This document shows positions 2,564 through 55,798 of a stretch of 64,000 bases of DNA, piece by piece; positions within the stretch are counted from its first letter, which is position 1, and each line of letters starts with the position of its first letter. A model generated the notes under the pieces. That model saw only the letters and a program-made list of their open reading frames with translations, had not been told where the DNA came from and did not search any database. Origin of the DNA: an uncultured Actinomycetes bacterium (GTDB lineage Bacteria; Actinomycetota; Thermoleophilia; UBA2241); contig CAWHYB010000007.1 in NCBI GenBank assembly GCA_963833555.1, positions 388,739 through 452,738 of the forward strand. The letters run 5' to 3'. The translations under genes were made by a program, and so were the position numbers.

Positions 2564-2589
2564 TCAACTCGGCAACCGGATTGCCGATA
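2564..2589 (+). promoter_or_regulatory. ECF-type promoter candidate (TCAAC-N13-TGCCGATA), 11 nt upstream of ATG 2601
   Basis: TCAAC at 2564-2568 and TGCCGATA at 2582-2589. The same two blocks with identical 13-nt spacing occur upstream of the paralogous sigma gene at 55809-55834. Confidence 0.4.
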
Positions 2590-2600
2590 CTGTTGCCATC

Positions 2601-4052
2601 ATGACTCCTTTGCAACAGGCGACCGTCATCACCAGTGCGAGCGCCGGCCCACCCGAAAGGAACGATGCGGCCATTGTGCTCGGCCTGCGCCGCGGCGACC
2701 CCGAAGCCTTCGCCGCGCTGTTCACGGCCTACCGGCTGCCGATCTACAACTTCGTGGCGCGCATGGTGGGCGACGTCGAGGATGCCAAGGACGTCACGCA
2801 GGACGTCTTCCTGAAGGCGTATCGCCAGGTGCCCCGCGACGACGCCGATCTCGCCCTGAAGGCCTGGCTCTATCGCGTCGCGACCACCACGTGCCTCGAC
2901 CATCTGCGCGCCCGCAAGCGGCGCGCCGAGACCACTCCCCTGGACCGGCACGAACTGTCGGCCACGACGGACCCGTTCGAGCAGGCCGAGACCGGCCGCC
3001 TGGTGGAGCAGACGCTCGGCCGGCTCTCAGAGCGCCACCGTCTGGCGCTCGTCCTCAAGGACTTGCACGGCCTCCAGCACGGCGAGATCGCGGCGATCAT
3101 CGGCGTTTCGCGCGGTGCCGCCGAGACGCTCCTGTTCCGTGCACGCGCCGCGTTCAGGAGCGCGTTCCTCGAGCTGTCGCCCACTGAAGGCCCCGCCAGC
3201 TGCCCGGAGGCTCGCCGTGCCGCCCTGATGCTGGTCGAGCGTGAAAGCTCGCCGCTCAGCAAACGCCGCTTCGTCGAGCACGCGCGCACCTGCCCGGATT
3301 GCCGTAGAGCGCTCAAAAGCGTCGCCCCGGGAGTATCGGGACTCGCCCTGTTCCTGCCGATGCTACCGCTGCCCAAGGCGCTCCAAGTCTGGCGTGTGGC
3401 GACGTCCATCGCGGGCGCGGCGTCGGCCGGCGGCGCAGGCGCAGCAGCCGGCGCAGGCGTGTCGGGCACGGCCGCAGCAGGCGCCGGCGCCGCCGCCTCG
3501 GGCGCCGCCGCGACCGGAGTCGGCGCGGCCTCGATCGGCGCTCCGAGCGGCATCATCGCGCAGATAGCAGCCGTCGCCGGGACGAAGATCGCCATCCTTG
3601 CGGCGACTGCGACCGCCACCATGGCGCTAGCGACCGCCGGCGCCAGGGTCCTGCCCAGCCACGCCGCCCCCGTCAAACAACCGCACCCGCCCACCGCGCG
3701 GATTCACGCAGCTGACGCAAACCCGCCCGTCGCAGTCACCGGCGAGCACCACGGAAGACGGCTGGGAGGCGGCTCTCCCTCACAGCGGGCCGCTCAAGGC
3801 CGGGGCGCGGCTCGCGACGCCACCAGGGACGCCACCGCAAAGGCCAAGGGCGCTGCCGCGGCCACCGACAAGACGGCCGCCACGGGCAAACAGGCGACCG
3901 GCAAGGACAAGGCGGCAGCCGCTGGCGACAACGGCAAGGCGGTCGGCGGCAAGGCGAGCGGCGGCAAGAGCGGCGCGACAAAGGGCGGCGGCAAGGCCGA
4001 CAAGGGCGGCGTCGACACCAAGACCAGGACCCCAGGCCCTAACGGCGCCTAG
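2601..4052 (+). CDS. ECF (sigma-70 family) sigma factor fused to zf-HC2 anti-sigma domain, TM region and Ala/Gly/Lys-rich tail
   Basis: Sigma region 2 (DVTQDVFLKAY, WLYRVATTTCLDHLR) and region 4 (LALVLKDLHGLQHGEIAAIIGVSRGAAETLLFRAR). These are followed by a ZAS-like H..C..C motif (HARTCPDCR), a hydrophobic stretch and a low-complexity tail. The ORF is open from GTG 2517; ATG 2601 is preferred because of the promoter motif and the paralog alignment. Confidence 0.75.
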   Translation: MTPLQQATVITSASAGPPERNDAAIVLGLRRGDPEAFAALFTAYRLPIYNFVARMVGDVEDAKDVTQDVFLKAYRQVPRDDADLALKAWLYRVATTTCLDHLRARKRRAETTPLDRHELSATTDPFEQAETGRLVEQTLGRLSERHRLALVLKDLHGLQHGEIAAIIGVSRGAAETLLFRARAAFRSAFLELSPTEGPASCPEARRAALMLVERESSPLSKRRFVEHARTCPDCRRALKSVAPGVSGLALFLPMLPLPKALQVWRVATSIAGAASAGGAGAAAGAGVSGTAAAGAGAAASGAAATGVGAASIGAPSGIIAQIAAVAGTKIAILAATATATMALATAGARVLPSHAAPVKQPHPPTARIHAADANPPVAVTGEHHGRRLGGGSPSQRAAQGRGAARDATRDATAKAKGAAAATDKTAATGKQATGKDKAAAAGDNGKAVGGKASGGKSGATKGGGKADKGGVDTKTRTPGPNGA

Positions 4053-4231
4053 CCAGCCGCGCCCCGTAGCGCGCGAGCGACCGGGTTGCCTCCGGCGGTT
4101 ACACATTCTCCGATCGTCCTCGCCTGTGAGCCCGGACGCTCCTTCAAGTCTCCAGCAGCCCTACCGATACCAGCCATGAAGAGCCGCACTGCACGGTGCG
4201 GCGACCCGGCTCGATCGAAGGGAGGAGCGAG

Positions 4232-4744
4232 ATGAAGCGAGTGACCCTCGGTTGCCTTCTGGCGCTCGTCGCGCTGTTCATGCTGGCTCCCGTCGCCTCG
4301 GCCTCGATCACGCTCAGGACGCCGGAACGTCAGCTGCTCGCCCTCGTCAACCACGCGCGAACGTCTCGCGGTCTGCACAGACTCACTGTCGTGACGAGTC
4401 TCGAGCGAGCGGCGCGGGCCCATTCGAGCCAGATGGTCGCCAAGACCTACTTCAGCCACGACTCCTACAGCGGCGAGGCGTTCGGCGTCGCGGCTGATCC
4501 GCTTCGGCTACGGACACGACCGGCTGCACGCTCTGGAAGGTCGGCGAGGACATCGCCTACGGAGCGGGCGACCTCGGCACGCCGAAGGCCATCTTCAGGG
4601 CCTGGATGAAGAGCTCGGCGCACGCGCGATCATCCTCACGAAGGCCTTCCGCAACGTCGGCGTCGGGCGCGCCGTCGGTACCGTACGACGGGCATGAGCG
4701 GCGTGGTCTTCTTCACGCTCGACTGCGGCGTGCGCACGAAATAG
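4232..4744 (+). CDS. secreted CAP/SCP (YkwD-like) domain protein; reading frame interrupted in this sequence
   Basis: Strong SD (GGGAGGAG) 4 nt before ATG 4232 and a signal peptide (MKRVTLGCLLALVALFMLAPVASA). The CAP motif LVNHARTSRGLHRL..AHSSQMVAKTYFSHDS is present. The C-terminal part (FRAWMKSSAH.., FFTLDCGVRTK) continues in other frames. Confidence 0.6.
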
Positions 4745-19801: not shown

Positions 19802-19881
19802 CTTGACCCCGCACCATCGGTTATGCCGCTACTATCGGCAGCAACCGACCGATGCTGTAGGCCGAATCGGAACTGCCTGGA

Positions 19882-19956: not shown

Positions 19957-20068
19957 TGCTAACCTTGTCTTCTCTAGTGAAGTTTGGTGGACATGCGGAT
20001 CATCAGAATCCTCCTGCGCTGGACCTGCATTGCCGGACGTAGCTAGGCGTTGAATCCTAAAGTTCTGT

Positions 20069-20096
20069 GTCAACCTGCCGATAACTAAAGGTTGAC
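20069..20096. promoter_or_regulatory. perfect 8-bp inverted repeat GTCAACCT-N12-AGGTTGAC carrying two divergent TTGAC(A/G) boxes
   Basis: Read directly from the sequence. It lies in the divergent intergenic region between the HD-GYP side and the MFS gene. Confidence 0.3.
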
Positions 20097-20242
20097 GATT
20101 GCCTGTGAGCAGGATGGTATACACGCACCGTGAGTGTGTGCAAGTCCCAATACGCAAAATCGTACGTGACCGTCGGGGTCTTCTTGTCAAATCTGGCAAC
20201 GCTTCTCGGGCCGACAATGGGTATGAGCCGAAGGCCGGCTCG

Positions 20243-52725: not shown

Positions 52726-54193
52726 TCACTGCTCCTGGTCGCGCGCCCGTGACCGCTTCATGGCATACATCCGGCGGTCGGCTTCGCGCAGCAGATCGTC
52801 GATGTCGGCCTTGCCGGCCGTGTGCATGCCCATGCTCGCCGAGAGACGCACCGGTCCTTTGGTCGCGGCGTTGCGACTTGCGATCGCTTCGTCGACCTTG
52901 AGAGCGACGCGCCGGGCACCCCGTTCGTCGGTGCCCGGCATCAGCACGACGAACTCGTCACCGCCGTAGCGCGCCACGATGTCGGTGTCGCGGCAGCTCG
53001 CCTCGAGAAGCGCGGCCAGCTCGCGCAGCATGGCGTCGCCGGCCTGGTGGCCGTACTCGTCGTTGACCTTCTTCATGTCGTCGAGGTCAAGGAAGAGGAT
53101 GCTCACCACGCCGCCGTTGCGGCGCACGTCCTTTTCGGTGCGCTCGAGGGTCAGTTCCAGATAGCTTCGGTTGTAGACACCGGTGAGGCCGTCGTGAATC
53201 GCCAGCTGATCCTTCTCCTGGATGAGTCCGCCGGTTGTCGAGCGCGATGACGGCGTGGATCGCGAACGTGCGAAACAGCGTCCTGTCGTCGTCGCTGAAG
53301 TGCCGCGCACGGTCATAGAAGCACGGCGAGGGCACCGTAGGTGCCGCGGTAGCTCTCGAGCGGCACCGCGAGAAACGACCGATAGCCGCCGCCTCCGCCG
53401 ACCCGGTCTGCGGTCGTGCTCTCGGCATCGACATCGTCGACGGCCACCGTCTCGCCGCCGAGTACCGCCCGCCCCAGGAGCGAGCCTTCGAGCGGCACCA
53501 CGAAGAGCTGCCGGTAGCGGTCATCGAGCCCATGCACCTGCCTTGGCGACCAGCACGTCGCCGCGCACCGCAAGCAGGGCCGCCTGCGGGGCGTCCATGA
53601 GCCGCGCCGCCTCGGCAAGGATGATCGGTTCGAGCGAGGCCGAATCGACACTGCGGTTGATCGTCTCGGCGGCGTCCAGAAGAAGCTGCTGGCGGCCGAT
53701 GCGCTCGAGCTGCTCGCGCAGGACGAGGGCGTGTTCGATGGCGGAGGCCAACTCGGCGCCGGCCGCGCCGACGAAGCCGACGTCGTCGGCGGAGTAGGTG
53801 CGCGGCCGGCGCGTCACGACCGTCAAGACCCCGAGCGCCCGGCTCTGGGCGACGAGCGGAAAGGCGAGCAGCGTGGAGATGCCCTCGCTCAGGGTCGGCG
53901 GCAGCACCAGCGGACTGACCGACGTGTCGGCCACGATCACAGTCTCCTGCCCGGTGAAGGCGACACCTGCCGCGGCCTCGTCATAGGGAACGACTGGCGA
54001 TCGTCGCTGCGTAGGCGTCTGAGATGCCGCGGTGGCAGGCCAGATCGAGCGTCTCGCCGTGAACAAGAGAGATCCACCCACCGTCGACACACAGGCCGGC
54101 GACGACCTTGTCGAGCCCCGTGCCGAGCACGGCCTCGAGCTCGACTGAGAGATCTGTTGCGGGGCCGGTCTGAGTCACGACGCCCAACTCCAA
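52726..54193 (-). CDS. GAF-GAF-GGDEF diguanylate cyclase; frame-interrupted
   Basis: C-terminal GGDEF domain (HDGLTGVYNR, RYGGDEFVVLMP) is intact in ORF 52726..53316. GAF-like segments lie in fragments 53313..53651, 53521..54090 and 53981..54193. Confidence 0.7.
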
Positions 54194-54226: not shown

Positions 54227-55798
54227 CTAGGGTTTGCCGCTCTTGCCGGGCTTGCCGGGCTTGCCGCTCTTGCCCGGCTTGGCGGCGTGGCCCTGGCCGC
54301 TGCGCTTGGGGATCTTCGCGTCGTGGTGTGCGGCATGCCGATTCGCGGCCTTCGTCGTCTTGATGGCCTTGGCCTGATGTCGAGCGGCCTTCTTAGCAGC
54401 GTGCAGCTTGGCGTGGATCTGGCGCTGCTTGACGCTGGCGCTCCCGCCGTGGCCCGGCTGCTTGCGGACAGCCGTAGATACCATGGATCTGTGATCGTCA
54501 GCCGCAGCGATCGCGGTCTGCAGCGTCCTGTCTGCCGCCGCCGATCCGCTGCCTCCATCCGCGCTGGCGTCAAACCCGATGAGCCCGCTGCCGGCCGGAG
54601 ATTGCGGCGTCACCACGACTCGGCTGGAGGTAGCCCAGTCGACTGTCTCGTCGGGTGTCGCCGCAGTGGCACCCGGTCCTTCGGTCACCGTCGGATGGCT
54701 GCCACCGACCGCAGGCGACTTGTCTGGTGACGCGGCCGGAGCCGGCACGATCACGACGCGGACTTGTGAGGGCGTCATCTGTCCCACCGGCTGCGGATGG
54801 TGCTGGCCCGCATACGCGGCCAGCCCGATGAATGCCGAAAGACAGACCGCAGCCACGGCGTAGGCGGCCGCTCTGCTGGCGACGACCGATCTGATCCTGG
54901 CCAGCGTCCCGGCGCCGGCAGCGGCGGCGCTTGCGGCGCCGGCGATCGCCACCGGCGGCGAGCTCGAGCCCGCCGCCACACCAAGCTCGGTCGCGGCGCC
55001 GAAGATCGGCGCCGCCTGCAGCGCCTCCGGGAGCAAGGCTTCTTCGAGGAAGAGCGCCAGACCGAATGCGGCTTCACCCCACGGCTTCATCGTGGTGCGG
55101 CAAGGCTTGCAGTACGCAGCGTGTTCGCGGAGCTTGCGCATTTCGTCGACGGGCAGAAGACGACCGACAGAACTCGCGGCGACTCGTTCGGCGAGCCGGC
55201 AGGGCGCGCCGGGCTGGTCCGTCATGGGCTCCTCGAAGGCGCGCAAGAACCGCTCTCGCGCCCGGAACAGCAGCGCGCCCATCTCACCGGTCGATATGCC
55301 GAGCACCATCGCGGTCTCTTCCGGGCGAAGGCCGTAGACGTCGTTGAGCAGGAGCGCGGTGTAGTGGTCGTCGCCCAGCGTCGACAGCGCCTGCTCCGCG
55401 CGGCGGTCCAGATCGCTCGCACCGCGCTGACCCGATCGAGGCCCGTCGTCGCCGTCCGGCTCGCGACCGCTGTCGCCGGCATCGCGATCGCCTCGACGGT
55501 CGCGACAGACGCTGACGGCGACCCCATAGAGCCACGGTCTCAGGTCGAATCGGCTTTCGTCGAGAAGGATCTGCCGGTAGGCCGTCACGAAGACTTCATT
55601 GGTGACGGCCGCGGCGTCGCCGCGGCCGCGCATCAGGCGCAGGACGAAGTTGTAAATGGACGTCCGGTAGGTCTCGTAAAAGCGCAGGAACGCGTCGCGC
55701 TCACCGGCCCGCAGATCGTCCAGGCAGAGGGTCGGCACCGAGCGCGTGTCTACGCCGACTGCGTGGTGATCACCGGAGGGTTCAGAAAGCCTTGCCAT
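54227..55798 (-). CDS. ECF sigma factor fused to zf-HC2 anti-sigma domain, TM region and Lys-rich tail (paralog of 2601..4052)
   Basis: Uninterrupted 523-aa ORF. Region 2 (TNEVFVTAYRQ, WLYGVAVSVCRD), region 4 (ALLLNDVYGLRPEETAMVLGISTGEMGALLFRAR), ZAS-like HAAYCKPCR, a hydrophobic segment, and a K/A/G/P-rich end. Confidence 0.75.
   Translation of the reverse strand: MARLSEPSGDHHAVGVDTRSVPTLCLDDLRAGERDAFLRFYETYRTSIYNFVLRLMRGRGDAAAVTNEVFVTAYRQILLDESRFDLRPWLYGVAVSVCRDRRGDRDAGDSGREPDGDDGPRSGQRGASDLDRRAEQALSTLGDDHYTALLLNDVYGLRPEETAMVLGISTGEMGALLFRARERFLRAFEEPMTDQPGAPCRLAERVAASSVGRLLPVDEMRKLREHAAYCKPCRTTMKPWGEAAFGLALFLEEALLPEALQAAPIFGAATELGVAAGSSSPPVAIAGAASAAAAGAGTLARIRSVVASRAAAYAVAAVCLSAFIGLAAYAGQHHPQPVGQMTPSQVRVVIVPAPAASPDKSPAVGGSHPTVTEGPGATAATPDETVDWATSSRVVVTPQSPAGSGLIGFDASADGGSGSAAADRTLQTAIAAADDHRSMVSTAVRKQPGHGGSASVKQRQIHAKLHAAKKAARHQAKAIKTTKAANRHAAHHDAKIPKRSGQGHAAKPGKSGKPGKPGKSGKP
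54231..54283. repeat. imperfect 9-nt tandem repeat encoding (GKS/GKP)n
   Basis: TTTGCCGCTCTTGCCGGGCTTGCCGGGCTTGCCGCTCTTGCCCGGCTTGGC encodes the tail KPGKSGKPGKPGKSGKP at the 3' end of the sigma-fusion gene. Confidence 0.5.

Follow-up and report, generated by a model that had tools for sequence, protein, structure and literature searches.

Two paralogous genes in a stretch of 64,000 nucleotides from an uncultured soil member of the Thermoleophilia (the whole of this stretch is called the window) encode extracytoplasmic function (ECF) sigma factors that are fused, in a single polypeptide, to a zinc-binding anti-sigma (ZAS) domain, a hydrophobic segment and a long basic tail. The two genes share an upstream motif, TCAA-N15-GCCGATA, and its best reading is a promoter of the sigma-28/FliA/WhiG class and not a promoter used by the ECF sigmas themselves. 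Taken together, we propose that nearly leaderless, WhiG-dependent transcripts encode self-inhibited, membrane-tethered ECF sigmas, and we assign to this reading a probability of roughly 0.7.

The window comprises positions 388739-452738 of contig C7 in a nine-contig, 2.49-Mb assembly with 69% G+C (G000). The completeness of this assembly is 51.6%, and the motif counts given for it below are minimum figures. Judging by the names of homologues, the organism is close to the Solirubrobacterales. Gene 1 is located at 2601-4052 on the plus strand (product P0001), and gene 2 at 54227-55798 on the minus strand (product P0002).

Gene 1 is an uninterrupted open reading frame of 483 amino acids starting at the ATG at 2601. 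In P0001, sigma region 2 occupies residues 40-108 and region 4 residues 134-184. These are followed by the ZAS ligands C201, H227, C231 and C234, with predicted helices at 202-249, and then by the motif GLALFLPMLPLPKAL, an Ala/Gly-rich linker, a hydrophobic segment at 317-345 and a basic tail of Ala, Gly, Thr and Lys. Gene 2, likewise uninterrupted from its ATG at 55798, encodes 523 amino acids on the same plan, with a more divergent sigma region 2, the ligands C200, H226, C230 and C233, a hydrophobic segment at 310-328 and a tail that ends in PGKSGKPGKPGKSGKP. The two products are 38% identical across 258 residues (E 1e-35), in an alignment that spans the sigma core and the zinc-finger region up to a common GLALFLxxxxLPxAL motif. 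This confirms their paralogy, which had been proposed in an earlier note on this DNA.

The sigma part is recognized by the family models, with both Sigma70_r2 and Sigma70_r4_2 of Pfam found in each protein, and the presence of regions 2 and 4 places the proteins among the ECF (group 4) sigma factors. For P0001, the scores are 58.9 bits for Sigma70_r2 (cut-off 24), 44.0 for Sigma70_r4_2 (25.7), 23.2 for Sigma70_ECF (21.1) and 86.2 for TIGR02937 (42.9). P0002 is marginal, at 25.7 bits for Sigma70_r2 (24), 24.4 for Sigma70_r4_2 (25.7, just under the cut-off) and 38.0 for TIGR02937 (42.9), and in its orthologues the similarity to region 2 is no longer detectable. A profile of 26 family members, compared with the structures in the PDB, matches AlgU, SigW and RpoE with E-values of 3e-46 to 3e-36. 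In the AlphaFold2 model the predicted local distance difference test (pLDDT) is above 90 across the sigma core, and the whole-chain fold comparison finds its best matches in sigma chains from sigma/anti-sigma complexes, with template-modelling (TM) scores of 0.8-0.9 per domain.

Following region 4, both proteins carry C-x25-H-x3-C-x2-C with identical spacing, which is the ligand pattern of a ZAS domain, and the four ligands of P0001 are 90% or more conserved across the 26 aligned homologues. The zf-HC2 model (PF13490) stays under its gathering score of 22.2 bits in both P0001 (16.1) and P0002 (13.4), and it is matched in half of the aligned homologues (13/26 with E <= 0.01; best 1.7e-6). The helices modelled after region 4 (202-212, 218-228 and 232-249) have a pLDDT of 72-88, and past residue 262 the value falls below 50. 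The Kyte-Doolittle hydropathy over 19 residues peaks at 1.8 for 317-335 in P0001 and at 2.1 for 310-328 in P0002. Both tails are of low complexity and rich in Ala, Gly, Lys and Pro, with net charges of +14 and +15 and a tail composition of A 0.25, G 0.17, T 0.11, K 0.09 and P 0.07, and no Pfam domain is found C-terminal of the hydrophobic segment. The tails (336-483 in P0001, 329-523 in P0002) and those of homologues contain K/P/G/A repeats such as PGKSGKPGKPGK and KPPKPPKPEKP, with net charges ranging from +14 to +43.

Whether the fusion could be an artefact is a question that matters because two neighbouring genes of the window show frame breaks, as described below. Neither an overlooked stop codon nor an error of sequencing can account for it, since the 26 aligned homologues (about 450-600 amino acids, nearly all metagenomic, out of 163 homologues found) keep one domain order; the ZAS part is missing in two of them (P0055 and P0076). 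There is no stop codon between the sigma and anti-sigma parts, a possibility that the earlier note had raised, and its view that sigma factor, ZAS-like anti-sigma and hydrophobic segment form a single polypeptide is upheld by the domain matches, the zinc ligands, the hydropathy and the homologues. A third ECF paralogue of the fused type is found outside the window, at C4:2990-3538 on the minus strand. Its 438-amino-acid open frame keeps a GLxxFL-like motif and the hydrophobic segment, and it has a terminator hairpin and a TTACACT promoter in front. It carries neither H-x3-C-x2-C nor the WhiG motif and was not taken as a member of the pair.

We now consider the DNA in front of the two genes. 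Upstream of gene 1, CTTCAAC (2562-2568) is followed by 13 nt, by TGCCGATA (2582-2589) and, after 11 nt, by the ATG at 2601. On the minus strand, gene 2 is preceded by CCTCAAC (55836-55830), 13 nt, TGCCGATA (55816-55809) and 10 nt before the ATG at 55798. These are the strings that the earlier note had described, with a distance to the ATG of 11 nt for gene 1 and 10 nt for gene 2. TCAAC-N12-14-TGCCGATA matches twice in the window, where 100 shuffles give an expectation of 0.00, and the exact form with N13 occurs in the entire assembly only at those two sites. The two 13-nt spacers have only two bases in common, and it is therefore the two blocks that are conserved, as opposed to a piece of recently copied DNA. 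Written as a sigma-28/WhiG-type promoter, the site of gene 1 (2564-2590, plus strand) consists of the -35 element TCAA at 2564-2567, a spacer of 15 nt and the composite -10 element GCCGATAC at 2583-2590. The site of gene 2 (55834-55808, minus strand) has TCAA at 55834-55831, the same spacer length and GCCGATAG at 55815-55808, with the ATG 9 nt further on. Both agree with the sigma-28/FliA/WhiG pattern of T(A/C)AA, a spacer of 15-16 nt and GCCGATA(A).

The published sigma-28 consensus is TAAA for the -35 and GCCGATAA for the -10 element (PMC8325347), and that of actinobacterial WhiG is T(A/C)AA-N16-GCCGATAA (bioRxiv 10.64898/2026.01.14.699351). Among the sites of E. coli FliA determined by chromatin immunoprecipitation sequencing (ChIP-seq), those of modABC and ybhK contain the literal TCAAC-N13-TGCCGATA, and that of flgKL contains TCAAG-N13-TGCCGATA (PMC4203485). 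A gene for the cognate sigma factor is present in the assembly, at C5:115564-116241, as an intact open frame of 285 amino acids that scores 272.6 bits with TIGR02479 (cut-off 189.6); this cut-off is passed in 75 of the 89 genomes of the family. In several genomes of the genus g11, the match to the FliA/WhiG model extends no further than the first 109-166 of its 224 positions, within much longer open frames of up to 781 amino acids (partial matches at G021:C7:51445-51771, G072:C5:533671-534156, G091:C5:258318-258824 and G089:C5:281569-281919), and whiG may carry an insertion or a fusion in those genomes.

The earlier note had taken the TCAAC/CGATA pair for elements spaced like ECF -35 and -10 boxes, as a hint of auto- or cross-regulation. 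In that case, TCAAC-N16-CGATA would be a promoter recognized by at least one of the fused sigmas in a positive loop, and the other genes behind the motif would form an ECF regulon. Autoregulation is common among ECF sigmas, and two-thirds of their promoters have AAC at the -35 position (PMC7826278); moreover, a motif that is found at both paralogues and at the adjacent gene for a CAP-domain protein, and that is kept in orthologues, follows the classic pattern of an ECF operon. However, the block that is kept, GCCGATA(A/C) with TCA or TAAA at a spacing of 15 nt, is exactly that of sigma-28, including the ChIP sites of E. coli FliA. At the fifth position of TCAAC, C, G and T occur freely, and one site in the window is a perfect version with TAAA. 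The motif also stands before many unrelated genes, a WhiG gene is present, and the set of targets resembles the known WhiG regulons. Furthermore, two relatives with assemblies that are 98-100% complete (G021 and G014) have 4-6 motif sites each, yet in both the best homologue of the fused ECF genes lacks the motif and lies behind a sigma-A-like promoter of the GCTAnnnT type. We thus consider it improbable that the fused sigmas transcribe their own genes from this motif, and the ECF-box interpretation is replaced here by that of a sigma-28-class promoter.

The counts of the motif across genomes are in line with a WhiG-type regulon. Reversed patterns served as the control, which does not capture codon bias; the long patterns containing GCCGATA are mostly located outside long open frames. 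Within G000, T[AC]AA-N15-GCCGATA gives six matches against one in the control, N16 gives three, and N13, N14 and N17 give none. The exact TCAAC-N13-TGCCGATA occurs 37 times in 26 of 89 genomes of the same family (control 5). The more relaxed TCA-N15-TGCCGATA is found 31 times in five genomes (control 1), 101 times in 22 genomes of the same family (control 5) and 165 times in 99 genomes from other families of the class (control 37). A shorter pattern, T[AC]AA-N16-GCCGA, gave 75 matches against 10 in G000 and was dropped as evidence, its excess being due to in-frame codon periodicity (ATC-AAG...GCC-GAC inside genes). The genes behind the family-wide sites are mutually unrelated, with fused ECF genes among them in just two genomes, G000 and one more. 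The earlier note had asked whether the motif is enriched upstream of genes genome-wide; it is indeed, with the sites representing the regulon of another sigma.

Orthologues make it possible to see which bases are kept. Gene 1 has metagenomic orthologues with 57-72% identity, in the conserved order PNP_UDP_1 / 260-amino-acid gene / ECF / CAP-domain gene. At all five orthologous loci TGCCGATA is kept, 10-12 nt ahead of the start codon, which gene callers have misplaced in two cases. The -35 element varies among TCAAC, TCAAG, TCACA and TCAGC and is unrecognizable in one locus (L072). The orthologues of gene 2 (47-55% identity; L039 and L107-L110) keep TGCCGAT(A/T) at all five loci, with an in-frame ATG 10 nt downstream in four of them, the nearest start in L107 being a GTG at 8 nt.

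The same comparison bears on the possibility that the housekeeping sigma factor transcribes both genes as leaderless mRNAs from TACTGT and TAGAAT, the remainder of the motif being inherited or accidental. These hexamers end 7 and 6 nt ahead of the respective ATGs, the latter as the earlier note had stated, and TANNNT has a peak in this genome at exactly that distance from start codons. Many other homologues of the fused ECF genes are also found behind GCTAnnnT-type promoters. In the orthologues, though, the hexamers decay (TACAAC, TACTAG, TAGTGC, TAGAAG and TAGGGG, the last two at gene 2) with loss of the critical last T, whereas GCCGAT(A/T) is kept, and on this ground the TAnnnT reading of the -10 element was rejected. 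Nor can the shared motif be put down to common ancestry of the DNA, the spacers being identical at only 2 of 13 positions, and the motif is enriched both genome-wide and family-wide. Transcription by the housekeeping sigma is accordingly quite unlikely, and together with the operator discussed next, it is much less likely than ECF autoregulation or the WhiG reading.

The third alternative is that the motif is an operator for a DNA-binding regulator and no promoter at all. What speaks for this is a single site in the window, a perfect TAAA-N15-GCCGATAA at 20058-20084 on the plus strand, ahead of a gene for a transporter of the major facilitator superfamily (MFS): at 20058-20100, part of the motif is enclosed by the two arms of the inverted repeat GTCAACC...GGTTGAC. 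The other sites show no palindromy, the motif is strictly oriented towards the downstream gene, its two blocks have a fixed spacing of 15-16 nt, and its distance to start codons or Shine-Dalgarno leaders is that of a promoter. An operator function is for these reasons very improbable. In the same divergent spacer there is one more TGCCGATA, with a poor -35 element, at 19833-19858 on the minus strand, facing the gene opposite to the MFS gene; we list it as a candidate only.

With a WhiG-type promoter as the preferred reading, the position of the transcript start can be estimated. In sigma-28 promoters, CGATAA is the core -10 element and GC the extended -10, and transcription starts some 6-9 nt past the core. 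This would put the start 0-4 nt ahead of both ATGs, and for gene 1 it is predicted at about 2597-2601, with a leader of 0-4 nt. The distance from GCCGATA to the ATG is 10-11 nt at both genes, with no GGAG or GAGG in between, and it is similar in most orthologues; being so close to the ATG, the motif leaves no room for a Shine-Dalgarno leader. Several of the motif-borne genes in relatives likewise have their ATG 10-14 nt past the motif. That this genome contains leaderless genes is shown by the TANNNT peak 6-8 nt ahead of start codons in G000, which corresponds to leaderless sigma-A genes. The earlier suggestion of leaderless or near-leaderless transcripts holds insofar as the promoter abuts the ATG and a Shine-Dalgarno leader is not possible, while strict leaderlessness is only plausible.

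Two neighbours of the fusion genes would belong to the same regulon. The first is the gene for a secreted, CAP/PR-1-like protein at 4232-4608 on the plus strand, which is next after gene 1 and syntenic with it in all orthologous contigs. It is preceded at 4144-4170 (plus strand) by an imperfect WhiG-type promoter that the earlier note had not listed, TCAAG-N13-TACCGATAC (TACCGATA at 4144-4169), and the orthologous spacers have GCCGATA at the same place before the CAP gene in all four contigs checked (L069, L070, L072 and L073). In the window this gene is split over two frames, 4232-4483 and 4519-4608. The second neighbour, at 52993-54178 on the minus strand, directly downstream of gene 2, encodes a GAF-GAF-GGDEF diguanylate cyclase (DGC), and three out of four orthologous contigs have a gene of this architecture within 50-150 nt after the gene 2 orthologue. 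Compared with its orthologue, the GGDEF gene runs through three reading frames, with changes near 53540-53590, 53323 and 53228, which points to indel errors of the assembly or to a pseudogene.

Elsewhere in G000, the genes behind the motif encode a type-IV-pilin-like protein with N_methyl and fn3 domains, an NlpC/P60 hydrolase, a LuxR-type response regulator (starting some 220 nt beyond the site), a 94-amino-acid zinc-ribbon protein and a YCF48-like repeat protein, in addition to the MFS transporter. The combination of pilin-like and GGDEF genes corresponds to the experimentally mapped WhiG regulon of Rubrobacter, a sister class, which contains type IV pilus genes and c-di-GMP enzymes, that is, DGCs and phosphodiesterases (PDEs) (PMC8325347). 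The zinc-ribbon gene, at C5:~213,300-213,650 on the plus strand of G000 and in L041-L062 of relatives, is the gene most widely kept behind the motif, in about 16 genomes. Its product has four CxxC pairs, forming a double zinc ribbon, and matches no Pfam family over threshold. In L053 it is a solitary gene, flanked by rimP-nusA and an L,D-transpeptidase gene.

In a further set of loci (L058, L065-L068 and L094-L096), a WhiG-type promoter is followed directly by a highly conserved, structured element about 130 nt long, at about 5-140 nt past the motif. In G000 it is found outside the window, at C7:~311,500-311,700 on the plus strand. The element reads GAGACCGG...CCTCTCTCTCAGCCGGGCCGGTCTCC...GTGAAGGCCCCCGCCGGCCCGGC followed by a T-run, with a terminator-like hairpin at the end, and the response-regulator gene after it has a separate sigma-A-like promoter. 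RNAalifold gives a consensus structure of -56.5 kcal/mol in which only two pairs covary, and no Rfam family matches this leader or small RNA. The element has the appearance of an unclassified small RNA that depends on WhiG. Its segment CCUCUCUCUC is complementary to the ribosome-binding site GAGAGAGG of the zinc-ribbon gene, and a link between the two is speculative.

On this basis the following mechanism can be put forward. WhiG, encoded elsewhere in the genome, would read T(C/A)AA-N15-GCCGATA(A/C/G) at both fusion genes. In the resting state, judging from the family, the fused anti-sigma domain would keep sigma regions 2 and 4 in a closed state and tether them to the membrane. By analogy to related systems, the sigma part could then be released through regulated proteolytic cleavage in the linker or the anchor, or else through oxidation of the RsrA-like C-H-C-C site or loss of zinc from it. 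The WhiG regulon would here include both fusions and the type-IV-pilin-like, zinc-ribbon, NlpC/P60 and CAP genes, with the GGDEF cyclase joining through the probable operon of gene 2. This would amount to a sigma cascade: WhiG would determine how much of the two latent ECF sigmas is made, and their activity would then depend on envelope or redox signals. The ECFs' own targets enter this proposal by inference.

A number of observations weigh against this picture. The dependence of both fusion genes on WhiG is deduced from the match to the motif and the comparison between genomes only. That gene 1 and the adjacent CAP gene both have the motif is also what an autoregulated ECF would be expected to look like, and the -35 element does hold AAC and the -10 element CGA, compatible with that reading. 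A search of the six frames of the 51.6%-complete assembly for the strict signature of RsiG, E-x3-S-x2-R-x3-Q-x3-D, gave no credible gene, which means little. As to the transcripts, the ATG lies 9-10 nt past the core -10, slightly beyond the 6-8 nt of the leaderless sigma-A genes, and the mRNA may for this reason carry 1-4 extra bases and not be strictly leaderless. As to the proteins, the hydrophobic segment is not modelled as a helix by AlphaFold2, and the strongly basic tails are unexpected, since they fit poorly with the extracytoplasmic side under the positive-inside rule. A simple topology with the N-terminus inside and the C-terminus outside is in conflict with such tails.

A wider proposal is that WhiG, which is gated by c-di-GMP in other actinobacteria, directly drives the two fusions in Thermoleophilia, that one of them is co-transcribed with the GGDEF cyclase, and that the regulon includes the small RNA of about 130 nt and the zinc-ribbon protein. 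We put this forward tentatively, as a possibility with the odds somewhat against it. If true, it would describe a circuit of three layers, from the second messenger through the supply of latent ECF sigmas to their release by envelope or redox signals, with feedback on c-di-GMP. In the literature searched, we found no regulon data for Thermoleophilia and no link from WhiG to fused ECFs, ECF sigma genes not being among the described WhiG targets. The present analysis thus offers a sequence-based prediction of a WhiG regulon for uncultured members of this deep actinobacterial branch, comprising pilin-like, c-di-GMP, zinc-ribbon and cell-wall or secreted proteins along with the two fused ECF sigmas. 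It also corrects an appealing interpretation, as an AAC...CGA pair that is spaced like ECF boxes is better read as part of a sigma-28/WhiG promoter. Confirmation would mean that one-polypeptide, "one-component" ECFs can answer to a developmental or motility sigma instead of controlling themselves, and that natural sigma-28 promoters can yield nearly leaderless mRNAs. The parts are all of known kinds, and the advance is incremental, the WhiG-to-ECF link being predicted and apparently unreported.

It remains to compare the fusions and their promoters with known systems. Fused ZAS-transmembrane extensions, with one or two transmembrane helices, have been described for ECF48, ECF52 and ECF53, groups confined to Actinobacteria for which proteolytic activation has been proposed (PMC8999054; PMC5826349). 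The present proteins, from hosts within the Thermoleophilia, have the same arrangement of ECF core, ZAS, membrane segment and long extension in a single chain, a likeness that is based on the described layout. In ECF52, represented by SCO4117 of Streptomyces coelicolor, the extension is rich in proline and contains a carbohydrate-binding module. By Pfam and the composition of the tail this hallmark is not found here, the tail being basic and rich in Ala, Gly and Lys (Pro) with no detectable domain. SCO4117 has moreover been reported to autoregulate from CSGYN-N17-SRHA (PMC5826349), whereas a sigma-28-type promoter stands in front of the present genes.

In the ZAS domain, H-x3-C-x2-C is combined with an upstream Cys or His ligand, RsrA having three Cys and one His, and in most ZAS proteins the zinc is structural only (PMC4598750). 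Our proteins resemble the pairs RsrA/SigR, RsiW-SigW, RslA-SigL and ChrR-RpoE in having H-x3-C-x2-C with a fourth ligand 26 residues upstream. This fourth ligand is a Cys here, giving the C-H-C-C set of the redox-sensitive RsrA, and redox sensing may by analogy apply to the fusions as well. Pairs of the RsrA/SigR type are separate polypeptides from adjacent genes, while here the two functions reside in one chain, of which the sigma part is closest to AlgU, SigW and RpoE.

The promoters, finally, are like those of FliA, SigD and WhiG, with T(A/C)AA at -35, a spacer of 15-16 nt, GCCGATA(A) at -10 and a cognate WhiG gene in the genome. As in the actinobacterial WhiG regulons (type IV pili and DGC/PDE enzymes in Rubrobacter), a pilin-like gene and c-di-GMP enzymes are among the predicted targets. 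In contrast to the WhiG regulons described in the literature searched (whiH and whiI in Streptomyces, and that of Rubrobacter), the predicted targets here include fused ECF genes, and the promoters abut the start codon.

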